Counted from the first letter of the stretch, positions 1,455 to 41,300 are shown. The stretch: DNA of 64,000 nt from an uncultured Candidatus Saccharibacteria bacterium (GCA_964584225.1 CAZOZG010000002.1:5127-69126); one strand, 5' to 3'. A program made the numbers and translations. The notes: a model not told the origin generated them from the letters alone.

Positions 1455-2444
1455 TTATAGTGATCTGTAAAACGAGATTTCTGGTGACATTACCCTCTCT
1501 ACGGATGCCACAAAGTTCTCATACGGGCTCATTTGCCTGGCAGCAGGAGCACTAGTTGAAGCAGGCTGTACGTTGCTCGTAACGGCACGATGTAGCAACT
1601 TTAGCCCGGCGAAACCGACAAACAGCGCAACTAGTACTCCAAATAATATTGTGTGCAAATAGTTAAACGTAAATTTAACCGTGGCGACTTTCTTTTTTGC
1701 TTTTGTGGTCACCCGTTGTTCTTCGGCAGGAACCTCTACTGGGCGAGGGCGTGTTTCTATTGGACGCGTTTTCGTTCTAAGATCAAGTCTTTTTCTATCA
1801 TCATCCACATCCCAGGTTCGTGATCGGCGTATTTCCGCGTCGCGCAATTCATCAGACTGTGGTTTTGTTTCAGTAATATCTTTCTTTACATCTGGAATTA
1901 ATTCTTTTTTGTCCTCTACGTAGCGCAGTCGTGTAACTGACTGCGTCGTGGAATTCTCGTCTTGAGATAAGCTTGTCGTAATTTTTTTTGCAATACCAAC
2001 TGATTGCGCTTGCACCGCTGCCAGAAGTGCATCCTTTTCTTGCTTATGAGCGACGATTCGAGCGCGATCGACGTACCAGCGATTACCTACCTGCTGCGAG
2101 GGAATTGTGTTTGCGCGTGCAAGCTGACCCACGTAATCCGAATTATAGCCAGTAATCTCCGCTGCTTTTGCGGCCGAGACATATTCGGTACCGTCAAACG
2201 AAATGACGGACTCGGCGCTTTTGTCCGTCGCAGGTGGTGGTATTGTACGCGCACGAGATTCGGAATTTGTTTTATACGATTGAAGTGATTGCATCGATAC
2301 ATACCACAGTCCCCCAATGCGTTTTGCTTCTATAAATCCTCCCCTCGCCAGTTGGCCTATGTAATCTTGCGCGTACCCAGAAAGCTCCGCCGCCTTTTTT
2401 GAGAGGACGTACTCTTTACCCTCAAGAGTAACAGAGTCAGACAT
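1455..2444 (-). CDS. Membrane-tethered protein with two tandem excisionase-like HTH (HTH_17-like) repeats, a charged linker and a C-terminal TM helix.
   Basis: The repeats KEYVLSKKAAELSGYAQDYIGQLARGGFIEAKRIGGLWYV and TEYVSAAKAAEITGYNSDYVGQLARANTIPSQQVGNRWYV match the pattern of excisionase/MerR-type HTH domains. The C-terminal hydrophobic helix is ILFGVLVALFVGFAGL. Confidence 0.5.
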   Translation of the reverse strand: MSDSVTLEGKEYVLSKKAAELSGYAQDYIGQLARGGFIEAKRIGGLWYVSMQSLQSYKTNSESRARTIPPPATDKSAESVISFDGTEYVSAAKAAEITGYNSDYVGQLARANTIPSQQVGNRWYVDRARIVAHKQEKDALLAAVQAQSVGIAKKITTSLSQDENSTTQSVTRLRYVEDKKELIPDVKKDITETKPQSDELRDAEIRRSRTWDVDDDRKRLDLRTKTRPIETRPRPVEVPAEEQRVTTKAKKKVATVKFTFNYLHTILFGVLVALFVGFAGLKLLHRAVTSNVQPASTSAPAARQMSPYENFVASVERVMSPEISFYRSL

Positions 2445-2509
2445 GCCGAGAAGTATACGGCCGTGCCGAGATTCTGCAACCTCGGTAAGCGATACCGGTT
2501 TATATTCCG

Positions 2510-3946
2510 CTATTTCTCGCCTCGGATTCTTGCCTCGATTATTGAGCGGAGCATCGCCGGGTTTGCCGCACCCTTTGTAGCTTTCATTGCTTGACCAACA
2601 AGAAACTGAAGGGCGGCAACCTTACCCGATCGTAGATCAACGAGCACTTTTTCGTTTTGCTGAAAGACATTGTCTATGACATTTTCTAAAGCCTTTACGT
2701 CCTGCAGTTGAAGCAAACCTTTTTCGTTTGCAACCTTCTCAGGATTCTGGTCTCCTTCAACGCATACTAATAGTATGTCCTTCGCAGAGCGGGAAGAAAG
2801 CTTTCCTTCATCTATCATCCGAGTCAAAACCACAAAATTACGGGGCGATATGCCTATATCGGCTTTATATCCTGAATCTCGATTCTCGGCTTCTCGGATG
2901 ATACTCACTAAATCATTTGCAATGTAGTTTGAAGCTAGTTGAACCAACTTAGTGTTACCCTCAAGGAGCTGTAACACATTTTCCACGAACTTGGCAAGTA
3001 CGGGTTCGCGTACATACAGGTCCGCGTCTTCTTTTTTCACTCCACGCTTTGTGTAGCGATCTCTTCTTTGCCACGGCAACTCGGGCATTGAATTCTTCAA
3101 CGTAAGAAACTCGCCCACTTCCGAAAGTTTCAGGCTTGGCAAATCTGGATCCGGAAAATATCGATAATCGGCGCTCCCCTCTTTCGTACGTTGCGGGAAC
3201 GTCGCCTGTTTACCTTCGTCCCAGCCGCGAGTCTCTTGCATCACTTGTTCTCCTTTTTCCAATGCAGCGATCTGGCGTTTGATTTCGTATTCGACTGCGC
3301 GCTCCATTGCACGAAATGAATTGAGATTTTTTATTTCAACTTTCGTGCCAAGCTGCTCACCTTTGCTGACTGAGACATTCGCTTCTACACGCATTTCACC
3401 TTTTTCCATGTTTGCTTCTGACACATCCAACGTTCGCAGCAGCAATTGCAGCTCGCGCGCAAACGCTCCGGCCTCTTCGGACGAGTATACGACGGGCTCT
3501 GTCACGAGTTCCATCAAAGGCACGCCGGCACGATTGTAATCAACTGTCGTCGTGCCCGTCGCCTCGTCGTGGAGTGAACTGGCCGTATCTTCTTCAAGGT
3601 GAACGCGGGTGATCTGCACACCACGCAGCTCCCCCCCACTCACCAATGGGTACTCATACTGTGAAAGTTGGTAGCCTTTGGGAAGATCGGGATAAAAGTA
3701 GTTTTTGCGGTCGAATTCGGTGTAGTCAACAAGCTTTCCCCCAAGTGCAATCCCTACCCGTAGCACGCTTTTCACCGCTTCCCTGTTGATCACCGGCAAC
3801 GTCCCAGGATGCGCCATGCAGACGGGACAAATATTTACATTCGGTTTCGATTCATCGGGATCATTTTTGGAATCGCAAAACATTTTCGTCTGCGTCTTCA
3901 GTTCTGCATGTATTTCGAGCCCTATCGTGGGTACGTATTCGCTCAT
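2510..3946 (-). CDS. gatB: Asp-tRNA(Asn)/Glu-tRNA(Gln) amidotransferase subunit B.
   Basis: MSEYVPTIGLEIHAELKTQTKMFC...PNVNICPVCMAHPGTLPV is the canonical GatB N-terminus. The start is placed at the internal ATG (3946); the track ORF extends 33 codons further upstream. Stop codon is TAG. Confidence 0.9.
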   Translation of the reverse strand: MSEYVPTIGLEIHAELKTQTKMFCDSKNDPDESKPNVNICPVCMAHPGTLPVINREAVKSVLRVGIALGGKLVDYTEFDRKNYFYPDLPKGYQLSQYEYPLVSGGELRGVQITRVHLEEDTASSLHDEATGTTTVDYNRAGVPLMELVTEPVVYSSEEAGAFARELQLLLRTLDVSEANMEKGEMRVEANVSVSKGEQLGTKVEIKNLNSFRAMERAVEYEIKRQIAALEKGEQVMQETRGWDEGKQATFPQRTKEGSADYRYFPDPDLPSLKLSEVGEFLTLKNSMPELPWQRRDRYTKRGVKKEDADLYVREPVLAKFVENVLQLLEGNTKLVQLASNYIANDLVSIIREAENRDSGYKADIGISPRNFVVLTRMIDEGKLSSRSAKDILLVCVEGDQNPEKVANEKGLLQLQDVKALENVIDNVFQQNEKVLVDLRSGKVAALQFLVGQAMKATKGAANPAMLRSIIEARIRGEK

Positions 3947-4021
3947 TACACAGTACTGTAGCAATTCGCCCTCTTGCCAACAAGCGCTGGCCCTGCGTTT
4001 GCGACGCGCTAAAATAGACGC

Positions 4022-4939
4022 ATGCGAGATTTGTCGCGATTGCAATGCGCCTTACTGACCTTGAGTGCATTCGTATCGTTTGCGTGTATCCTCCCCGCCC
4101 CGACATGGGCGATCACCTGCGCGGCATCAGGCTTTACCGATATCGGCGGTGGCGTTTGTCGCGGATTTCTTACATCCGGCACTTCGTGGACGGTCCCAAC
4201 AGACTGGGACTCGTCCAACAACTATGTCGAGGTTATCGGTGGCGGTGGTAACGGTGGCGACTCCTCAGGATCTGCTCATGCGCAGGGCAGCGGTGGTGGA
4301 GGCGGGGGGTACTCAAAAACTTCAAATGTCAGCCTCACCACGGGGAATTCTGTAACGTATCAGGTCGGCGCTGCGACCGGCGATACTATTTTTAATGGTA
4401 CCGGCGCAACCTGCGATGGCTCGCAAACGTCCGAGGTATGCGCGAAAGGAGGAGGGACCGGGTTCGCATGGAATAACGGTGGCAGCATTGGAAGTTTCGG
4501 AGCCGGAGGGGCCGCCTCCGGCGGCGTCGGTACAACGAAACATTCGGGGGGAAACGGGGCCCTCGGAGTCGTTAATGGCAGCGGTGGTGGCGGAGGCGGA
4601 GCAGGCGGACTCAATGGTGACGGAAACGGCGGGTCGGGTGGCACCGGCGGTTCGGGTGATGCGGGTTCTGGCGGCGCAGCCGGAAGTGGGGCGGGTACGG
4701 AGTGGGATGGGTCGCACGGCTCAGGTGGTGGCGGCAACACAGTGATCGGCACATGTTTTAGTTCTCCTGGCGGCAACGGAGGAAACTACGGCGGTGGCGC
4801 AGCTGCTGGCACCTGTACCGCCGGAGGATCAGGAGCATCAGGCTTGATTGCGATCACGTACACGGCACTAGTACCTGCTCCTCGCATTATTCACCTCAAG
4901 GGCGGCCTGCGGCTTCGCGGCGGAGTGCGGTTTCGATAG
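4022..4939 (+). CDS. Secreted glycine-rich low-complexity protein.
   Basis: Signal-peptide-like N-terminus MRDLSRLQCALLTLSAFVSFACILPAPTWA, followed by long GGxGG/GSGG tracts. The Pro-rich antisense ORF 4360..4776 is a mirror artefact of the GGN codons. Confidence 0.45.
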   Translation: MRDLSRLQCALLTLSAFVSFACILPAPTWAITCAASGFTDIGGGVCRGFLTSGTSWTVPTDWDSSNNYVEVIGGGGNGGDSSGSAHAQGSGGGGGGYSKTSNVSLTTGNSVTYQVGAATGDTIFNGTGATCDGSQTSEVCAKGGGTGFAWNNGGSIGSFGAGGAASGGVGTTKHSGGNGALGVVNGSGGGGGGAGGLNGDGNGGSGGTGGSGDAGSGGAAGSGAGTEWDGSHGSGGGGNTVIGTCFSSPGGNGGNYGGGAAAGTCTAGGSGASGLIAITYTALVPAPRIIHLKGGLRLRGGVRFR

Positions 4940-4943
4940 CAAC

Positions 4944-5519
4944 ATGACACGATTTTTCGTCGCGCTCATCGTGATTACAGCGGCTATCGTGGGAGCCTTG
5001 CTTGTACTCCACCAACCTTCCACGCTCACATCTCTACGCTCAGTCAACGAAGCGTCGTCAACAGCGTCCACGACTGCAAGCTCGACGACGAACACCATGG
5101 CGGCAGAAAGAGCAGTCCCACCAGGTACTACCCTCTTCGAAAATGCCCAGTACCACTTTTCTCTTTTCTATCCGACAGAGCTTGCGGTCACGGAATATCC
5201 CGAGCAAGGAGGCGGACGCTCGTTCAGCTTCGAAAATAAAGACGAAAGTCAGGGATTTGAAATTTATGCGTTTCCCTACAGCGATACACAAATCACACAA
5301 AAACGCTTTCTGACGGACGAACCCTCAGGTGTGCGACAACAACCGAATGACGTTGTGATCGATGGCGTAAAAGCGACAATGTTCTTCGGAAATAATGCGA
5401 TTATGGGTGACACGCGTGAAGTGTGGTTCATCAAAAATGGATATCTGTACGAATTGACCACTTATAAATCACTCGATTCGTGGCTCGGCAGTATCATGCA
5501 GACCTGGAAGTTTATCTAA
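4944..5519 (+). CDS. Hypothetical membrane-anchored protein: N-terminal TM helix, Ser/Thr-rich linker, extracytoplasmic domain.
   Basis: N-terminal hydrophobic stretch FFVALIVITAAIVGALLVL, then the linker STASTTASSTTNT. It directly follows the Gly-rich gene on the plus strand, and both run against the local minus-strand polarity. Confidence 0.4.
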   Translation: MTRFFVALIVITAAIVGALLVLHQPSTLTSLRSVNEASSTASTTASSTTNTMAAERAVPPGTTLFENAQYHFSLFYPTELAVTEYPEQGGGRSFSFENKDESQGFEIYAFPYSDTQITQKRFLTDEPSGVRQQPNDVVIDGVKATMFFGNNAIMGDTREVWFIKNGYLYELTTYKSLDSWLGSIMQTWKFI

Positions 5520-5583
5520 CGACCTTCCGCACTTTCAACTCAGCGTGTATCTCGAGCCCTATAGTCGGAATGTATTCAGCCAT
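5512..5583 (-). pseudogene. Remnant 5' fragment of a gatB copy (23 codons then stop).
   Basis: Minus-strand reading gives ATG GCT GAA TAC ATT CCG ACT ATA GGG CTC GAG ATA CAC GCT GAG TTG AAA..., which translates to MAEYIPTIGLEIHAELKVRKVVR*. That is about 80% nucleotide identity to the true gatB start (MSEYVPTIGLEIHAELK) at 3895..3960, and the similarity extends about 15 nt upstream of the ATG. Confidence 0.5.
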
Positions 5584-5600
5584 CACACTACTGTATCACT

Positions 5601-5924
5601 TCAAAACACCCACGGCCAAATAAAGACAACGAAAGCCACGATCGGAAGTATTGAATAGAGTATTGTTTTACCTATGATAATCTTGTTGCCAACCTTAAAG
5701 GACTCAATTATCGACCAGAGAAGAGCCGCTGGTACTCCGAGCGCGACGATGAGAATTGTTGCGATGAGCGGGACCGCGAGAAAAAATCCCAAAGCTTCCG
5801 TTTGCATTTCAAATTGTTGGATCGCCTGGGAACTCGCCTCAGTATAACCTAATAGCGACCAGGCCAGTACATAGAGTCCAGCGATAGCGTTTACGCGATT
5901 TAAAATAGTGAGACCGCTAACCAT
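5601..5924 (-). CDS. Small polytopic membrane protein, hypothetical.
   Basis: 107 aa with three hydrophobic helices. Confidence 0.35.
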   Translation of the reverse strand: MVSGLTILNRVNAIAGLYVLAWSLLGYTEASSQAIQQFEMQTEALGFFLAVPLIATILIVALGVPAALLWSIIESFKVGNKIIIGKTILYSILPIVAFVVFIWPWVF

Positions 5925-5946
5925 CTCGCAATATTAGCACGCAAAG

Positions 5947-8451
5947 TTAGCCAGAAATCGATTCGTGGGTGACGATCCGCCACTCGCCTGTCGCGATCAT
6001 GGGCTCTGCTTTTTTGAATTTCATCTCGAGCGTTTCTTTGCCATTCGTAATCTTCACTTTGTCGTTGCGGCCAAACGCGCGAGACGTCACTCCACCTGAG
6101 CCCGCAGTGATCGCTTGCGCCGCTTTTTGAACAGCCGCAGCTTCACGTGGTGGCGAGCTTTGTCCGCCAATACCGGGCAGCACATGTTCGATCTGCATCG
6201 AATACGTGATTTCCATGTTTTTGAAGAGTCGCAGACCTTCTTTCTTGTATTCCACCAAGGGATCGCGCTGTCCGTAGGCGCGAAGATTGACTGAACTGCG
6301 CAAGTATTCCATCGCTTCCAGATGCTCGACCCACAGCATATCGACGGTCTGCAATAGGAAACGGCGAACGAGCGGATAGAATGACGCGCCAAGCTCTGAT
6401 TTTTTCTTCTCGACAGACACTTTGATGTTTTCGTTGGTCTCAGACAATTGTGCGAGTTCCTGATCGACAGCAGCATCACCACCCGTGAGAAGCGCGCGGC
6501 GGCGTCCGTAGACGCTTTTACGTTGCACGCTCAAGACGTCGTCATACGCCAAGACGTGCTTTCGGGAATCAAAGTTGAGCTCTTCGATCTTCTGCTGCGC
6601 CTTTTCGAGCGAGCGCGTGATCATCGAATTCGCGATCGGCTCGTCTTCAGGGATTTTGAATGTGCCCATCACTCGCTTAATCATGTCGGAAGCGAACACA
6701 CGCATAAGAGAATCTTCCAGTGAAACGTAGAATTGTGTCTCACCCGGGTCGCCCTGGCGGCCGGAGCGTCCACGGAGTTGGTTGTCGATACGTCGAGCTT
6801 CGTGCCGCTCGGTACCCAAGACAAAGAGCCCGCCGATATTTTTGATTTGCTCGTATGCGCTCTGCGGCGCGGGGTTGCCGCCAAGTTTGATGTCGACGCC
6901 ACGGCCGGCCATGTTGGTCGCGATCGTGACACCACCCGGTTTACCTGCTTGTGCAATGATTTCGCCTTCACGTTCGTGATTTTTCGCGTTCAAAATCTCG
7001 TGCGGAATCCCCTCTTGCTTGAAGTGAGCGCTCAGCATCTCGTTCTTTTCGACGGAGACGGTGCCTACCAAGACGGGCTGCCCTTTCTCGTGCAGCTTTT
7101 TCACTTTGTGAGCAATTGCTTTCATTTTGCCCGCTTCGGTTTGGAAAATCAGGTCGTCGGAATCTTTTCGCTGCGGAGAGATGTTGGTCGGTACGACGAC
7201 AGTATTGAGTCCGTAGACCTTGAAAAATTCTTCGGAGCTCGTGATGGCGGTACCAGTCATGCCGGCGAGCTTCGCATAGAGGCGGAAATAATTTTGGAAG
7301 GTAATTGATGCAAAAGTACGACTCTCTTGCTGAATGCGAACTCCTTCCTTGGCCTCAATTGCTTGGTGTAAACCCTCGCTCCACCGTCTCCCGGGTTGAA
7401 GTCGGCCGGTAAATTCATCGACAATGACAATCTCACCGTCTCGGACGACGTATTCTTTGTCGAGACGATACAGGGCTTGCGCGCGCACGGCCGTCTCGAG
7501 GTGGTGTACGTATTTGATGCCGGCGTCGGTGTAGATGTTGTCCAAACCAAGCGCTTTCTCAGCTTTTTCGATTCCTGCGTCAGAGAGCTGGATCTGCTTG
7601 TGCTTTTCATCAACCTCGTAATCTGTTTCTGGATTCAGTGTTTTCGCGATTGCGGCAAATCGATCGTAGAGCGATTCCGCGTCGGCGACTGGCGCCGATA
7701 TAATGAGGGGCGTGCGTGCTTCGTCGATCAAGATCGAGTCGATTTCGTCGACGATTGCGTAATGATACTCTCGCTGGCGGAGATTTTGTGGTTCATATTC
7801 CAAGTTGTCGCGCAAATAATCGAAACCGTATTCGTTGTTCGTACCGTATGTAATGTCTGCGGCATAGCTTTCGCGGCGCGTGCACGGCTTGAGGAAATCA
7901 TGCATGACCTTGAAGCCGCCGAGCTCTTCGCGTTCTTTCTCGTCGACTGCGTGCGTCGGGTCGTAGATATACGACGCTTCGTGATTAATGACGCCAACGC
8001 TCATCCCAAGCGCGTAGTAGATCTGCCCCATCCACACCGCGTCGCGGCGAGAGAGGTAGTCGTTGACCGTGACGACATGCACACCCTTTGCCATCAACGC
8101 GTTGAGGTACGCAGGGAGAGTCGCGACCAGTGTCTTACCTTCGCCAGTGCGCATCTCGGCAATGTCGCCATTATGAAGAATCATGCCGCCGATGAGCTGC
8201 ACATCGAAGTGTCGCTGCCCAAGCGTCCGACGCGATGCTTCGCGGACCGCTGCGAATGCCTCTGGGGCCAAATCATCTAAGGTCTCGCCCGCGGAGATTC
8301 GATTGCGAAATTTGTGTGTCAGTGCCTTCAGCTCATCGTCGGAAAGTGTCTTGAATTTCTCTTCAAGCGCATTCACTTTCGCGACAATTGGCTCCGCCTT
8401 CTTGAAGGCAGCTGTATTCTCATCACCAACCAATCGCTTCCAAAATGCCAT
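5947..8451 (-). CDS. secA: Preprotein translocase ATPase SecA. The C-terminal tail is non-canonical and lacks the Cys-rich zinc motif.
   Basis: MAFWKRLVGDENTAAFKKAEPIVAKVNALEE..., with DEAD motor motifs (GEGKTLVATLP, DEFTGR, TNMAGRGVDIKLGG). An AGGA Shine-Dalgarno-like sequence sits about 10 nt upstream. Stop codon is TAA. Confidence 0.93.
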   Translation of the reverse strand: MAFWKRLVGDENTAAFKKAEPIVAKVNALEEKFKTLSDDELKALTHKFRNRISAGETLDDLAPEAFAAVREASRRTLGQRHFDVQLIGGMILHNGDIAEMRTGEGKTLVATLPAYLNALMAKGVHVVTVNDYLSRRDAVWMGQIYYALGMSVGVINHEASYIYDPTHAVDEKEREELGGFKVMHDFLKPCTRRESYAADITYGTNNEYGFDYLRDNLEYEPQNLRQREYHYAIVDEIDSILIDEARTPLIISAPVADAESLYDRFAAIAKTLNPETDYEVDEKHKQIQLSDAGIEKAEKALGLDNIYTDAGIKYVHHLETAVRAQALYRLDKEYVVRDGEIVIVDEFTGRLQPGRRWSEGLHQAIEAKEGVRIQQESRTFASITFQNYFRLYAKLAGMTGTAITSSEEFFKVYGLNTVVVPTNISPQRKDSDDLIFQTEAGKMKAIAHKVKKLHEKGQPVLVGTVSVEKNEMLSAHFKQEGIPHEILNAKNHEREGEIIAQAGKPGGVTIATNMAGRGVDIKLGGNPAPQSAYEQIKNIGGLFVLGTERHEARRIDNQLRGRSGRQGDPGETQFYVSLEDSLMRVFASDMIKRVMGTFKIPEDEPIANSMITRSLEKAQQKIEELNFDSRKHVLAYDDVLSVQRKSVYGRRRALLTGGDAAVDQELAQLSETNENIKVSVEKKKSELGASFYPLVRRFLLQTVDMLWVEHLEAMEYLRSSVNLRAYGQRDPLVEYKKEGLRLFKNMEITYSMQIEHVLPGIGGQSSPPREAAAVQKAAQAITAGSGGVTSRAFGRNDKVKITNGKETLEMKFKKAEPMIATGEWRIVTHESISG

Positions 8452-8784: not shown

Positions 8785-10782
8785 TCAACCTTGTGCGGCC
8801 GCAGCTTGCTTGATCCACGCATCTTGATCGGCTTTGTTCGGATAGAGTGGCGCGAGCGTCTGTCGTGCGCCTGTCTCATCGCCGACCCACAGCTGCGCCT
8901 GCGCGTAGTATTGACGTGCTTGATCATTTTCCGGCAACTCTTCAAAGGCTTGCTTGAACGACGCGACTCCGGCTGCTTTGTCGCCAAGGCGGAATTGATT
9001 GGTGCCAAGTTGGTAGAGAATCGTTTGCTTCGCTGGTGAGAGTTTGTGTGCTTGCTCGAGTGCGATTTCTGCATCTTTATAATCGCCGTACGAATCCAGC
9101 AGCACACCTAAGAAAAGCGGAAAGCGCGCATCCAAGGGCGACGCCTGCATCTGCAACGTCATTTCTTGCGCCGCGGTCTCAAAGAAATTTTTCTTTGCAT
9201 CGGTTGAAATATTTGGATTACCTGCGATCTGCGCCGCGGCTTGAATGAGCTGTTCGCGCGCTTCTTGCGTGCCGTAGGTGCCGTACGCAATTGCTTGTTT
9301 GAAGTACGTGAGGTTTGTGTTGATATCAGATTGCTGCGCGAGAGCATTCAAGAGCGTTTTGTTCTCGAGATACGCATGTCCATTCACGTTCCATGCAGCG
9401 ACGCAAAACAGCACCAGCGCAGCGAGCGAGGCGTATGGCAAGAGATGCCGCGCCGAGAAAGACGTCTCGACAAGCGGCATCGTGCTCTCGTGCGTGCTCG
9501 CGCGCCACGCGATAAACGCAATCACACTCGTGAAGAGAATGTAGCTCGTAACGTTATCGAAGACGAAAAGATCGTGGAAGAAGTACGCGGCGAGTAATCC
9601 TGTGAGAATACTTTGCTCGGCAGCGCTAAAGACGTCGCGTCGCCACACAAGATAGAGTGCCGCAACAAAGATCGAGAGATAGCTCAGCAGTCCCAAGAAA
9701 CCGCCTGCAACGAGCCAGTCGAAGACAACGTCGTGCGTGCGATCAAACCACTGCTCTTGCCCATACATGCGTGGATCGTAGTACTTGTCGAACACAATCG
9801 CGTAGTTTTCTTGCCCCCAGCCCAAGAGCGGTCGCTCTTTCGCACCTTGCCACGCCATGCCCCAATTCAAGAAGCGCGCTTTCACCGTACTATCGGTGAG
9901 CGAAATTGATGAGAGGCGGTTCAAGAATCCGATGTTTTGTACAAACGCACTTTGACGATTGACGTAGATCAGTGCTCCTGCAACGACGAGTGCAACCACG
10001 ACACCTGCTGTCCACCACGCAGCTTTCGAGCGACGCGTCCGCACTGCGAAGAGAAAGAGCGCGATCAAGCCGCCACCGATAAGCCCGAGCGTCGTGCCGC
10101 GCGTGCCAGTGAAAAGGAGCGCCACCGTGTCGACAAAAATGACGATTGCATACCACGCCGACATCCAGCCGCGCATGCCCGCCTTTTCCTTTTGCCACGC
10201 ATTTGCCCAGAGCATCGCGGCGATGAAAATATTGAAAAGCATGTACGCTGCGAGATAGATCGGGTTGCCAAAGGTCGCGTCGATGCGCGCTGAAAGGCCG
10301 CCCGAGCCACCTTGCCCGAGAGCTGCATCCCCCAAAATCTGCGCGAAACCCCAGAAAGCAACCAAGACAGACAAGAGAAGCGACATTTCCCAAAAACGTC
10401 GCCAGAGCTTTTCCGTATTGAGCGTCGTATACGCAACGATGAAGTAGAGCAAGAGATGCATCTGCGTCACCCACCCATCCATGCGCTCGTAATTACTCCA
10501 AAAGCTTTTGAAGGGCACTGCGCCTTGTGCGTCCGCGATCGCGATGACGAGCACAAAAAGCGCAAACGCTCCCAAAAGCAAGGAACGCTTCGGCCAGTAG
10601 GCAGGATTACACAGTGCAAGCGCAAGCCACGCACATGCGATTAATTCAACGATGAGGCGGAATAGAAAATTCTTTCCGGTGATGAACGGAAAGAAAAGAT
10701 CGTAGGCGACGTAAAAGACAATGAAGGGAAGTGCGAAGACGCCAACGATGACGATGCCGCGTAGAAACTTCTCAAGCGTCAT
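8785..10782 (-). CDS. O-antigen ligase (Wzy_C) domain polytopic membrane protein with C-terminal TPR repeats.
   Basis: A 665-aa polytopic membrane protein matching the layout of the O-antigen ligase/Wzy_C family (multiple TM helices plus a large periplasmic loop). The C-terminal approximately 200 aa show a TPR-like pattern (AYLENKTLLNALAQQ...YYAQAQLWVGDETGARQ). Stop codon is TGA. Confidence 0.55.
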   Translation of the reverse strand: MTLEKFLRGIVIVGVFALPFIVFYVAYDLFFPFITGKNFLFRLIVELIACAWLALALCNPAYWPKRSLLLGAFALFVLVIAIADAQGAVPFKSFWSNYERMDGWVTQMHLLLYFIVAYTTLNTEKLWRRFWEMSLLLSVLVAFWGFAQILGDAALGQGGSGGLSARIDATFGNPIYLAAYMLFNIFIAAMLWANAWQKEKAGMRGWMSAWYAIVIFVDTVALLFTGTRGTTLGLIGGGLIALFLFAVRTRRSKAAWWTAGVVVALVVAGALIYVNRQSAFVQNIGFLNRLSSISLTDSTVKARFLNWGMAWQGAKERPLLGWGQENYAIVFDKYYDPRMYGQEQWFDRTHDVVFDWLVAGGFLGLLSYLSIFVAALYLVWRRDVFSAAEQSILTGLLAAYFFHDLFVFDNVTSYILFTSVIAFIAWRASTHESTMPLVETSFSARHLLPYASLAALVLFCVAAWNVNGHAYLENKTLLNALAQQSDINTNLTYFKQAIAYGTYGTQEAREQLIQAAAQIAGNPNISTDAKKNFFETAAQEMTLQMQASPLDARFPLFLGVLLDSYGDYKDAEIALEQAHKLSPAKQTILYQLGTNQFRLGDKAAGVASFKQAFEELPENDQARQYYAQAQLWVGDETGARQTLAPLYPNKADQDAWIKQAAAAQG

Positions 10783-19405: not shown

Positions 19406-21262
19406 CTATCGCATCCACGCGTCGTACCACAGCTGGAATGTCATTAGGGTCCACAATTTTTTGCGATGATCGCGCGTGCCGGATTCATGCTCGTGCAACA
19501 TACGCTGAATTGGCTCTGGTTTGAAAAAGCCACTGCGGCGCACCGAGTCGGTGGATAGCAATTGATGCGAGAGATCGCGCAATTCTTTCTGCAACCAGCG
19601 ACCAATTGGCACCCCAAAGCCTTGTTTTTTGCGCCACACATTTTCCAACGGCAATTTTTCACTCATGAGCCGCTTCAAAAGGTACTTGCCAGTAAGCCCG
19701 CGATATTTATATGAGTACGGAAGTGCAGAGACAAATTCCACGAGCGTATGATCGAGAAACGGTGCGCGCACTTCCAAGCCGTGCGCCATGCTCGCACGAT
19801 CGACTTTGACCAAAACCTGATCCATGAGGTAGGTGCGCGCGTATGACCATAAAAGGTCGTGATGAAATTGTTCTTTGTCTGCATGGATCGAAAAGAATTG
19901 ATCAAGGTGCGCATACGGTGACCGGCGTGCGGGAGTAATCAAAAGATCATTCGCCTCGCGATCATTGAACGCGCCGAGCCACTGTTGATGCCGATAGCGC
20001 GGATCGGTATCCGCGCCTTCGATAAATTTTTTGAGGACGAAATCTGCACTAAAATAGCCGTGACGGACAGGTAACGCATTGATCACAGGCTCGATGAGCG
20101 AACTGCGCAGGGCACGCGGAATTGCGCGATACCAGCTCACAAATTGTTCTGCACGAAAGGTCGGATAGCCAGCAAACAGTTCGTCGGCGCCGTCGCCGCC
20201 GAGCGCGACCGAGACGTGCTTTTTAGTGAAGGATGACAAAAGGTACGTCGGCAGCACCGACGCGTCGGCGAGTGGTTCATCGATGTAGCGAAACACTTCC
20301 GGAATGAGCTCGACGCAACGCGCGGAAGAAAATTGCTCTGCCGTATGCTCAACCCCGATTGTTTTTGCAGCGATTTTCGCATATGTAAGTTCGTCGAAAT
20401 CTGCATCGTCGAAACCGATCGAGAATGTCTTCACCGGTGCACGCGAGGTCTTTTTTGCGTAGTACGCGACCGTCGAGCTATCGATACCACCTGAGAGGAA
20501 CACTCCTAAGGGGACGTCGCTCATGAGGCGCTTTTCAACAGCGCGCGAGAGATGCCGATCGAGCATCTCTCGCGCGTGTTCAAATGAGATCGAGTGTGAT
20601 TGTCGCGACAACGACCAGTAAATTTCCTCTTGCGGCTCACTCCCCTTTTTCGAAACGACGTAGCCACCTGGCTGTACCTTGCGCACACCTTTGAAAATCG
20701 AATATGGCGTCGGAACGTATTCGTACGTGAGATACATGCGCACGGCATCCGGATCAATTTCTTTTTTGAATGCGGGGTGCTGCATCAACGATTTCAATTC
20801 GGAGCCGAAAATCAAGGTGTCGTCGAATACTCCCCAGTACAGGGGTTTCTTCCCCATGCGATCGCGCACAAGATACACGGTGTCGCCACGATGATCGTAG
20901 AGCGCGAAGGCGAACATGCCCTCGAGCTTTTCAAACGCTTTCGCCCCGTATCGCTCGAAGAGCGCAAGAATCACCTCGGTGTCGGTGTTGCTCGTGAATA
21001 CGTAGCCTTGAATTTCTTTTTTGAGTTCTTGGAAATTATAGATTTCGCCGTTGAAAATGATGGTCGTGTGGCCGCTCGCGCTCGTCATTGGCTGATGACC
21101 TGCTGCTGATAGGTCGATAATCGAAAGACGCGTGTGCGCAAAACCAATATGACCTGCATACCAGATACCTCGATCGTCCGGCCCGCGGCGACCCAATGCA
21201 TTCGTCATTTTATCGAGCGTCGCCGTGTCGCCCTTCCCGTAAAATCCGCCGATGCCGCACAT
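19406..21262 (-). CDS. asnB: Asparagine synthase (glutamine-hydrolysing) family amidotransferase.
   Basis: MCGIGGFYGKGD N-terminal nucleophile, and the SGGIDSS PP-loop. Confidence 0.85.
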   Translation of the reverse strand: MCGIGGFYGKGDTATLDKMTNALGRRGPDDRGIWYAGHIGFAHTRLSIIDLSAAGHQPMTSASGHTTIIFNGEIYNFQELKKEIQGYVFTSNTDTEVILALFERYGAKAFEKLEGMFAFALYDHRGDTVYLVRDRMGKKPLYWGVFDDTLIFGSELKSLMQHPAFKKEIDPDAVRMYLTYEYVPTPYSIFKGVRKVQPGGYVVSKKGSEPQEEIYWSLSRQSHSISFEHAREMLDRHLSRAVEKRLMSDVPLGVFLSGGIDSSTVAYYAKKTSRAPVKTFSIGFDDADFDELTYAKIAAKTIGVEHTAEQFSSARCVELIPEVFRYIDEPLADASVLPTYLLSSFTKKHVSVALGGDGADELFAGYPTFRAEQFVSWYRAIPRALRSSLIEPVINALPVRHGYFSADFVLKKFIEGADTDPRYRHQQWLGAFNDREANDLLITPARRSPYAHLDQFFSIHADKEQFHHDLLWSYARTYLMDQVLVKVDRASMAHGLEVRAPFLDHTLVEFVSALPYSYKYRGLTGKYLLKRLMSEKLPLENVWRKKQGFGVPIGRWLQKELRDLSHQLLSTDSVRRSGFFKPEPIQRMLHEHESGTRDHRKKLWTLMTFQLWYDAWMR

Positions 21263-39527: not shown

Positions 39528-41300
39528 ATGTGCGGGATTTTCGGCATCAATGAAAAGAATGAACCACTCGTCGACGCAGCGGCTGCGTGCATTCGTCACC
39601 GCGGGCCAGATTCCTACGGCAAATGGATTGGGGAGTCTTTTTCTTTTGGTTTCGACCGACTCGCGATTATCGATCTCGATCAACGCGCCAATCAGCCGAT
39701 GTGGGACGATGCGCGCGAGCTCGCCGTTGTTTTCAACGGGGAAATCTATAATTTCAAAGAGCTGAAGAGTGAACTCGAAAAAGAATTTCAGTTTCGTACG
39801 ACCTCTGATACAGAAGTCTTGCTCTACGGGTATAAAAAATACGGACCAGCATTCGCCGAGCGATTACGTGGCATGTTTGCTTATGCGATCTACGACTCGA
39901 AGAAAAATCGTGTGGTGCTGTTTCGCGATCACGCTGGCATCAAACCCCTCCTCTACTATTTCAAAGACGGCATCTTTCTCTTCGGTTCTGAGATGAAAGC
40001 AGTTATGCGTGCGCTTTCACAAAAACAGATCGCGCCGACGCTCGATCGCGATGCAATTCAAAGTTACTTCGGGCTTGGCTATATTCTTTCTCCGGCGACG
40101 ATGTACAAACACGTTCGCAAAGTGCCTCGTGGCTCGTATCTCGAATTCGATATTGCGAAGAAGCAAATTGTTGCCGTAGAACATTTTAAAAGTCCCGGGG
40201 CGAAGGCGAAAAGTGATGACGAGCTTTTCACGATTATCGAACAAAGCATTCTTGATCACCTGATCGCAGATGTGCCCGTCGGTCTCTTTTTCTCAGGGGG
40301 AACGGATTCATCGCTTATTGCATCGATCTTGCACGCGCACAAGGTGGACCTTGAGACATTCAGTATCGGAGTCGAGGGACGAGACACCGACCGAAAATAC
40401 TTTTCCGAAATAAGCGAAACGCTCGGCATCAAGGCGCACGCGTTCGATTTCACACCCGCGGAATTCAACGCGGTCTACGAACCCGTCATGAACAAAGTGG
40501 ATGAACCATGCGCCGATATTTCGATTTTTCCCACGTACTTTGTCTCTCAAAAAGCCGCGGAACGGGTGAAAGTGGTGCTTTCTGGCGAAGGCGGTGACGA
40601 ACTTTTCTTTGGATACGCGCGGCAGCGCGCGCTCGCGCGCCTCCGCGGCGCGCGCTGCCGCGCTTCCCTCACACTTGTCGAACAACTTTTCTTGCGCACA
40701 CCAACCTTTAAAGGCAAAAACTTCGTTTTCGAGAAGATCTTTACGCTCCTACGACAGCCCGTGAGCGCGTACCTCCTCTTCATGTCACCGTCGCGTGACC
40801 TTACCAATCCTGCTGCGTGGGCTGCTGCAAAAAAATCTCTCGTAGAGCAGGCGAATGAACCACTCTACTTCGACCGCGATCTGTATCTTGAAAATGATTT
40901 ATTGCGTAAGACCGACTTCGCGACATCACTAAACTCAATCGAAGGCCGCGTTCCCCTTCTCGACCCACGTATCATCGCAGCCGCACCGGCGTTTGCCAGT
41001 GAATACAAACCATCGGCACCGTCGAAACCAGTGCTGAAACGGCTTCTCGCTCGTTTTTTGCCGAAAGAATTGGTGTACCGCCCAAAAAGTGGTTTTGGGA
41101 TTCCGCTGCTGCGAATGCTGCCTCATTCAGAGGCTTTGCGACGTGATCTCGATTTGGCAATTGCTTACCTGCAAAAAGAGAGGCTCTTGTATGCAACATT
41201 GCCACGCACACGTGAAGAACTGGTGGCTCGGTATCCGAATCTGTGTTTCGCGATGATCAGTCTTTACCGTGCGCTCACGAACAACGCATCACAAGCCTGA
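39528..41300 (+). CDS. asnB: Asparagine synthase-family amidotransferase, second paralog.
   Basis: MCGIFGINEK, SGGTDSS. Confidence 0.8.
   Translation: MCGIFGINEKNEPLVDAAAACIRHRGPDSYGKWIGESFSFGFDRLAIIDLDQRANQPMWDDARELAVVFNGEIYNFKELKSELEKEFQFRTTSDTEVLLYGYKKYGPAFAERLRGMFAYAIYDSKKNRVVLFRDHAGIKPLLYYFKDGIFLFGSEMKAVMRALSQKQIAPTLDRDAIQSYFGLGYILSPATMYKHVRKVPRGSYLEFDIAKKQIVAVEHFKSPGAKAKSDDELFTIIEQSILDHLIADVPVGLFFSGGTDSSLIASILHAHKVDLETFSIGVEGRDTDRKYFSEISETLGIKAHAFDFTPAEFNAVYEPVMNKVDEPCADISIFPTYFVSQKAAERVKVVLSGEGGDELFFGYARQRALARLRGARCRASLTLVEQLFLRTPTFKGKNFVFEKIFTLLRQPVSAYLLFMSPSRDLTNPAAWAAAKKSLVEQANEPLYFDRDLYLENDLLRKTDFATSLNSIEGRVPLLDPRIIAAAPAFASEYKPSAPSKPVLKRLLARFLPKELVYRPKSGFGIPLLRMLPHSEALRRDLDLAIAYLQKERLLYATLPRTREELVARYPNLCFAMISLYRALTNNASQA

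Follow-up and report, generated by a model that had tools for sequence, protein, structure and literature searches.

Introduction

Two described systems come close to the locus reported here. Homology-facilitated illegitimate recombination (HFIR) leaves displaced pieces of genes behind, as has been documented experimentally (PMC3240628), and it has been proposed to account for displaced effector and immunity genes in type VI secretion system (T6SS) clusters of Vibrio and for Rhs loci (PMC5361080). In dusA, for its part, the 5′ end is the integration site of genomic islands and prophages, from which the gene receives a replacement 5′ end (Farrugia et al., 2015; PMC4482086); these elements carry a tyrosine integrase and att repeats of about 21 bp, are tens of kb long, and occupy the same site in more than 200 genomes (PMC4482086). 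The present locus lies in a stretch of 64,000 nt (GCA_964584225.1, CAZOZG010000002.1:5127-69126), which is called the window below. It comes from a genome deposited as an uncultured Candidatus Saccharibacteria bacterium and is treated here as belonging to a Kaiserbacterium. In the window the start of gatB occurs twice, once at the head of the intact gene and once as a stub of 23 codons further upstream, with two genes for surface proteins in between.

The stub is very probably a real gatB start, diverged in a foreign lineage and left behind by a rearrangement in a variable hotspot. As to how this happened, we favor HFIR with DNA from a related Kaiserbacterium, to which we give a probability of roughly 0.5. 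The locus is a recombination scar of a known kind, and represents no new element or mechanism.

Results

The start of gatB is present twice

An earlier note on this DNA, made by a model from the sequence, had described a second, displaced gatB start at 5583, and aligning the two starts confirms it, the similarity being significant. The ATG codons of gatB and of the stub are at 3946 and 5583, both on the minus strand, which gives a period of 1637 nt. The top direct repeat of the window in a repeat search is an ungapped pair of 55 nt with 76% identity (3897-3951 and 5534-5588). Self-BLASTN of the window aligns 3897-3967 with 5534-5602, in 71 columns with one gap, at 76.1% identity and E = 3.7e-6, and this pair is one of two repeats in all that reach E ≤ 1e-4 in the 64 kb. 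When GatB was searched against the window with tblastn, the stub was the sole second site (E 4.8e-5), and the motif PTIGLEIH occurs at just two sites in the 64 kb.

Over 17 codons the peptides are MSEYVPTIGLEIHAELK in gatB and MAEYIPTIGLEIHAELK in the stub, with 15 of the 17 residues identical; compared with GatB of a related locus (L081), the stub is identical at 17 of 19. The 51 coding nucleotides agree at 38 positions (74.5%), and the copies match exactly over no more than 11 nt at a stretch. The figure of about 80% identity given in the earlier note is thus essentially right, if slightly generous. Past the 17 codons the stub reads VRKVVR and then stops at TAA (5514-5512), giving the total of 23 codons that had been claimed. 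The open reading frame (ORF) is a dead end, in which a promoter box, an ATG and 17-19 gatB codons are fused to unrelated sequence. With N-terminal similarity beyond chance in both DNA and protein, the stub at 5512-5583 is a GatB-derived fragment.

The gene at 2510-3946, by comparison, encodes a full-length GatB. It matches Pfam GatB_N (5.8e-106, 354 bits) and GatB_Yqey (2.8e-30, 106 bits), and the NCBIfam equivalog NF004012 with 541 bits against a cutoff of 338, over residues 2-475. Its N-terminus (Table 1) agrees with that of the Kaiserbacteria orthologues.

The window is a metagenome-assembled contig, and conserved gene starts are potential chimera points. A second start might in this way be an artefact of assembly, in which reads of two Kaiserbacteria strains from the same sample were chimerically joined where the start of gatB is conserved. 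However, both junctions are reproduced in the Logan contigs of run SRR12313478, in which L090 corresponds to window 4258..1626 (2633 nt) and L091 to window 4676..5870 (1195 nt), each at 100% identity, and misassembly is therefore unlikely. An exact match of 11 nt is too short to mislead an assembler, and a chimera at the repeat would produce a hybrid gatB rather than a stub with a convergent gene ending in front of it. An artefact is considered extremely improbable.

The two starts diverged as parts of working genes

The 17 shared codons contain 13 nucleotide differences, nine of them at third positions, and two amino-acid changes (S2A and V5I). Ten codons differ, and in eight of these the changes are synonymous alone. 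Both amino-acid changes are conservative, and the variant residues A2 and I5 are present in functional orthologues. Given 13 random substitutions, two or fewer amino-acid changes were obtained in 0 of 100,000 simulations with uniform substitution and in 1 of 100,000 with a transition bias (P ≤ 1e-5), and nine or more third-position changes have a P of about 0.002 under random substitution. The amount of change is that found between species: 13 of 51 nt separate the stub from the resident gatB, and each of these two differs from gatB of five related loci (L081, L082, L084, L172 and L173) at 10-16 of 51.

The truncated copy of 23 codons is not under selection for GatB function, and the divergence must therefore be older than the truncation. 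Since it is dominated by synonymous changes and has reached species level, the two starts diverged as parts of a working gatB in different lineages. It follows that one of the starts came from another lineage, that of a different Kaiserbacterium. The displaced segment thus represents a diverged allele and not a local copy, as expected for the footprint of HFIR.

These numbers bear directly on the possibility that the gatB start was duplicated locally, as a segmental (tandem) copy, and that the unused copy diverged afterwards. This had been put forward as one candidate mechanism and is the simplest route to a direct repeat. A local origin would agree with the upstream non-coding bases of the two copies, which are closer to each other than to those of the orthologues. 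It is contradicted by the coding part, where 13 nucleotide differences have produced two amino-acid changes. Neutral decay implies a random proportion of replacement to synonymous changes, which is not what is seen (8 of 10 differing codons synonymous only, P ≤ 1e-5), and over a span that brought synonymous change to the between-species level it should have given many more replacement changes, or stops. A local duplication is consequently rated as very unlikely.

The secA-gatB spacer is variable in Kaiserbacteria

Kaiserbacteria gatB contexts were collected by a search for homologous proteins, followed by retrieval of the contigs that encode the matches. The best GatB relatives are 64-69% identical and come from sources named, where a name is given, as Candidatus Kaiserbacteria, Parcubacteria or Pacebacteria. 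Matches of 100% are solely fragments of the same genome, and a GatB scan of genome contigs found none closer than 59% identity among the matches listed.

Seven related loci (L081, L082/83, L084/85, L172 and L173) have the conserved order Wzy/TPR gene, secA, short spacer, gatB, HTH_17 gene. The secA of the window is 71-78% identical to the gatB-adjacent secA of L081-L085 and L172, and the HTH_17 gene follows gatB likewise in L081-L085, L172 and L173. This comparison of synteny, which the earlier note had suggested, shows zero or one small gene between secA and gatB in the seven loci and no second gatB start in any; neither the two-gene module nor a stub is in view in them (0/7). What the spacer holds differs from genome to genome (Table 1), and it is a variable hotspot in the Kaiserbacteria genomes examined.

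In the window, the first putative gene after secA would encode a hydrophobic protein whose sole match among 5.8 billion proteins is its own record, and which has no Pfam or NCBIfam match. The stop codon of this ORFan is 17 nt before the ATG of the stub, so that the stub sits exactly where gatB begins in other genomes.

A reading of the stub as a leader peptide or regulatory upstream ORF was rejected, as it is absent from the other Kaiserbacteria gatB loci.

The inserted segment

The earlier note placed two plus-strand genes for surface proteins between the gatB copies, and both are confirmed as such. The product of ORF 4022-4939 has a signal-peptide-like N-terminus and matches PF21722 with 2.2e-6 and 28.3 bits against a cutoff of 24.3, over positions 3-225 of the 226 in the profile. 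It is therefore a Gly_rich_2 protein, above the gathering threshold and over the whole domain. For the second protein, here called memb191, AlphaFold2 predicts an N-terminal transmembrane helix, a linker of low confidence and a well-predicted domain, with a predicted local distance difference test (pLDDT) score of 85.6. A Foldseek search against the PDB with this model gave PsbP and CyanoP (E 6e-6 to 1e-4, template modelling score about 0.5-0.6, 9-14% sequence identity), and a Pfam search gave no match. The model is thus predicted to adopt a PsbP/Mog1-like fold, which is a resemblance of fold only. The memb191 family has 178 homologues with 40-62% identity in Paceibacteria/Kaiserbacteria metagenomes.

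In its N-terminal 117 residues and its C-terminal tail, the first protein is homologous to the products of genes that often precede memb191 homologues elsewhere. The surface proteins whose genes come immediately before the PsbP-fold gene have differing middles (glycine-rich, fn3, or very large) and a common basic tail, ...RIIxLxGGxRLRGG..., which is found at window 4856-4939, at L142 5-502, and in L119, L146, L148, L155 and L161. The tail may serve as a signal for sorting or for binding a partner, in connection with the membrane protein encoded downstream.

The inserted segment contains little beyond the two ORFs and the gatB promoter and start, with flanks of at most about 55 nt and 13 nt. 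The proximal junction is within 3968-4021, an interval with the promoter box of the resident gene on one side and the start codon of the glycine-rich protein gene on the other. At the distal end, codon 19 of the stub (CGG) and part of codon 18 resemble ACG-CGG-ACG of the orthologue, and the similarity is gone by codon 21. The side of an HFIR footprint on which the illegitimate join would lie is in this way bracketed to 5520-5532.

No recombinase or transposase was detected with Pfam and NCBIfam in the insert, in the 14 kb checked on its flanks or among the neighbors tested out to 16 kb, which are housekeeping or polysaccharide genes; over that range the absence of an integrase, as stated earlier, holds. 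There is no Rfam family in 3700-6100 and no tRNA gene in the window, so no RNA gene served as an integration target.

Base composition and codon bias were also compared between the insert and its flanks. There is a GC peak of 66% at 4400-4800, which is due to glycine codons, and GC content at third codon positions (GC3) is lower in gatB, HTH329 and the small ORF than in secA and the Wzy gene. The same gradient is present in L081, L082 and L084, and it is therefore specific to the genes and no signal of transfer. Differences can be seen, in other words, but they are uninformative on the origin of the insert.

Table 1. Features of the gatB locus (window positions unless a contig is named)
Feature	Position	Strand	Basis or remark
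HTH_17 membrane protein, conserved downstream neighbor of gatB, no part of a mobile element	1455..2444	-	Pfam HTH_17
Intact gatB, 478 aa, N-terminus MSEYVPTIGLEIHAELKTQTKMFC	2510..3946	-	Pfam GatB_N, GatB_Yqey; NCBIfam NF004012
Repeat copy A: start of intact gatB with promoter box, ATG and 17 codons	3897..3967	-	Repeat search, self-BLASTN
Extended -10-like box TGCTACAGT, 8 nt upstream of gatB ATG	3955..3963	-	Sequence; leaderless-type start, presumed function
Insert gene 1: secreted glycine-rich protein, 305 aa, tail ...PRIIHLKGGLRLRGGVRFR	4022..4939	+	Gly_rich_2 PF21722
Insert gene 2, memb191: membrane-anchored protein, 191 aa	4944..5519	+	Transmembrane helix, linker, predicted PsbP/Mog1-like fold domain
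Distal junction zone, insert to stub	5520..5532		13 nt after gene 2 stop codon (5517-5519)
gatB 5′ stub, ORF of 23 codons: MAEYIPTIGLEIHAELK, VRKVVR, stop	5512..5583	-	gatB-derived part 5533-5583 (17 codons, perhaps 19)
Repeat copy B: stub and its promoter box	5534..5602	-	Repeat search, self-BLASTN
Extended -10-like box TGATACAGT, 6 nt upstream of stub ATG, apparently intact	5590..5598	-	Sequence
Putative small membrane protein, 107 aa, hydrophobic ORFan	5601..5924	-	Own TGCTAATAT box 6 nt before ATG
secA, conserved upstream neighbor of gatB in Kaiserbacteria	5947..8451	-	Pfam SecA domains
secA-gatB spacer, window	3947-5946		ORFan small membrane protein, stub, two-gene insert
secA-gatB spacer, L081	7124-8000		Y1_Tnp-like gene
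secA-gatB spacer, L082/L083	L082 7515-8000		23S_rRNA_IVP-family gene
secA-gatB spacer, L173	390-1197		UPF0150-like gene
secA-gatB spacer, L084/L085	L084 7700-8000		Empty
secA-gatB spacer, L172	1879-1932		Empty

The module at other loci

The context of the module was surveyed at 84 other loci that carry a member of the memb191 family, in about 430 kb. The memb191 homologue is typically the last in a run of surface-protein genes, and the commonest site, at 10 loci or more, is directly upstream of gap. A Y1_Tnp-like gene adjoins the module in about 18 of the 84. Contexts with Y1_Tnp or gap were observed in L088 (8001-9363), L094, L103, L107, L109, L111, L123, L132, L134, L137 (187-1628), L142 (512-2222), L143, L145, L148 and L153. 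All 84 loci lack an integrase beside the module, and none contains gatB there, whether as a gene, a stub or a gatB-like motif; the viral contigs searched for the module gave no match.

A general tendency of the module to make stubs was considered and rejected: no second gap start is present in the 10 loci with the module upstream of gap, and no gatB-like motif in the 84.

The survey bears on the idea of a site-specific islet at the 5′ end of gatB. Such an islet would, like those at dusA, bring a replacement start (an attP mimic), leave the native start at its far end and be bounded by attL/attR-like repeats, its integrase having been lost or acting in trans. The geometry of the locus fits this, with an imperfect direct repeat of 71 nt (76%) of which the proximal copy is the working gatB start. 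However, no integrase or recombinase is found in the insert or the tested neighbors, the insert consists of just the two ORFs with their short flanks, and there is no recurrence, either among the 84 module loci or the seven gatB loci or in viral contigs. An islet with its own gene-start mimic, as the earlier note proposed, is left unsupported when the other 84 modules stand without gatB, stub or integrase, and we regard it as unlikely.

Two of the surveyed loci, L137 and L142, are close to the window in arrangement. In both, the module faces the 3′ end of secA and is oriented as in the window, with a Y1_Tnp gene in place of the ORFan and the stub and REP-like palindromes (GAGGTTCGACCTC) right after the module. 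No gatB remnant could be detected at the nucleotide level between module and secA in either. A donor-like arrangement, with the module beside the 3′ end of secA, thus probably exists.

The same loci could also speak for a move linked to a Y1 transposase (IS200-like or REP-associated), by which the module would have passed from its usual place upstream of gap into the secA-gatB spacer, either by the action of Y1_Tnp elements or by recombination between them, these elements being lost here later. Y1_Tnp-like genes do adjoin the module in about a fifth of the surveyed loci, in L137 and L142 such a gene separates the module from secA and is accompanied by the palindromes, and another occupies the secA-gatB spacer of L081. 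The window itself, however, has no Y1_Tnp homologue when searched by tblastn with two Y1_Tnp proteins of related loci. Transposition of the IS200/IS605 type is not known to make a long target duplication, and such a move would not alone yield a second gatB start with the synonymous divergence of an orthologue. We therefore see it as a rather unlikely source of the stub.

Promoter boxes and start architecture

No Shine-Dalgarno sequence precedes the gatB start or the stub start. Instead, each has an extended -10-like box (Table 1), and a TGnTAnnGT box is present at the same position in gatB of L081, L082, L084, L172 and L173. The 6-nt spacing between box and ATG of the stub is the usual one in gatB orthologues. 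A TGnTAnnnT-N5-9-ATG design is also found before at least 10 other long ORFs in the window, including secA's neighbor, the Wzy gene and the small ORF at 5924. Since the box is both conserved in gatB orthologues and generic in the window, the similarity of the two copies upstream of the ATG is largely one of promoter architecture. The earlier note had extended the repeat about 15 nt upstream, and 15 of 17 positions there do match, besides an indel of 2 nt.

Further boxes are at 5932-5940 and before the ORF starts at 10782, 11884, 54934 and 61620 (minus strand) and 24756 and 37059 (plus strand). Many genes that open a transcription unit thus have a TGnTAnnnT box whose end is 5-9 nt from the start codon, and no Shine-Dalgarno sequence. 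To go by this pattern, mRNAs with no leader or almost none may be the rule in this Kaiserbacterium, and the boxes presumably act as promoters. A generic sigma-70 scan did not pick up the promoter boxes, and found no minus-strand terminator between the stub and gatB. It is conceivable, though doubtful, that the box of the stub is still active and drives transcription antisense through the surface module into gatB. If so, the scar would couple expression of a variable surface module to the housekeeping gene gatB.

Other features of the window

The second repeat at E ≤ 1e-4 is an inverted one of 37 nt with 89% identity (21021-21057 and 39730-39766). Its copies are inside ORFs 19406-21262 (minus) and 39528-41300 (plus), both of which encode FNGEIYNF..EL, which we take to be a motif of glutamine-dependent asparagine synthase-like enzymes. 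Because both copies are in long ORFs with one conserved motif, they represent two paralogues and not a mobile repeat.

On the other side of gatB, the gene after the HTH_17 protein opens with a second, paralogous copy of the same double HTH module, of 30% identity (840-1082, minus). L081, L084 and L172 have this second module too, there at the start of proteins of very large size. Positions 1000-1400 have the lowest GC content of that end of the window (37.5%) and are without a long ORF.

Discussion

How the stub may have arisen

In its general form, an insertion at the 5′ end of gatB with a displaced start, the reading given in the earlier note was right: the stub is derived from gatB, and a two-gene block of 1.5 kb separates it from the gene. 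The stub marks a former gatB start, in the usual place for Kaiserbacteria, with secA and a single small spacer gene before it. If the event was HFIR, one recombination would have put about 1.57 kb between the old start and the body of the gene, consisting of the two-gene surface module and a second complete gatB promoter and start. The donor DNA would have come from a related organism and, as we infer, would have been taken up in a transformation-like manner. One end would have been integrated by homology in gatB or secA, and the other by an illegitimate join no more than 13 nt past the gene 2 stop codon.

There are two ways in which this might have occurred. In version (a), a donor segment containing the module plus gatB would have recombined in gatB, and its other end would have been joined after codon 17-19 of the resident gene. 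In version (b), a donor segment containing the end of secA, the small ORF and the gatB start would have recombined in secA and been joined just past the stop codon of a resident module, replacing whatever was there before, perhaps a Y1_Tnp gene like that of L137 and L142. Both versions lead to one and the same product, and either start could be native.

Several points weigh against this scheme. There is no close relative in the searched collections, where the best gatB is 69% identical and the small spacer protein is without a homologue, and no parental empty site, donor sequence or breakpoint inside gatB or secA was found. The contigs of L137 and L142 end inside a surface-protein gene before any gatB, so that the donor-type arrangement is half seen. 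Composition and codon usage show no foreign origin of the insert, and we know of no demonstration of natural transformation in this organism. Finally, the upstream non-coding stretch (TACAGTA..GTGT) is more alike between the two copies than either is to the orthologues. This fits a fairly close donor, but it could also hint at a local origin.

If recombination of this kind is indeed the explanation, the stub may be a footprint, and one that can be dated, of DNA imported from another species through one-sided (illegitimate) recombination into a genome of the Candidate Phyla Radiation (CPR)/Patescibacteria. The locus is a small and clean example of gene-order change in the reduced genomes of Kaiserbacteria, and a possible handle on inter-species recombination in these uncultured episymbionts. 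The two inserted genes form a widespread, uncharacterised surface module of Paceibacteria, which may merit a study of its own.

Comparison with known systems

The footprints attributed to HFIR in the T6SS clusters of Vibrio cholerae and in Rhs loci have a homology anchor on one side and an illegitimate join, often at microhomology, on the other, and this is the mechanism proposed here. As with the orphan immunity genes of T6SS clusters and the orphaned 3′ ends of Rhs loci, a fragment of the old copy stays beside the new module, and old and new copies differ at the level of alleles or species. Unlike in those systems, the leftover is the 5′ stub of a housekeeping gene, consisting of a promoter and 17-19 codons, and not the 3′ end of a toxin gene or an immunity gene. 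Moreover, we see one event and no array, in a Kaiserbacterium that has not been cultured.

The likeness to the dusA islands is one of layout: a housekeeping gene has received an insertion at its 5′ end and is kept intact by a second start, and the displaced start forms an imperfect direct repeat at the other end of the insert. The present locus departs from them in having no integrase, an insert of just 1.5 kb, a repeat of 71 nt with orthologue-like divergence, and no recurrence at the 84 module loci and seven gatB loci.

The locus also resembles the gene remnants found at intergenic hotspots, in that the secA-gatB spacer contains a different small gene, or nothing, in each genome, and the stub lies within it. 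Most such hotspots hold genes of mobile elements or defence, whereas here the cargo is a conserved pair of surface-protein genes and the scar is the flanking core gene's own start.

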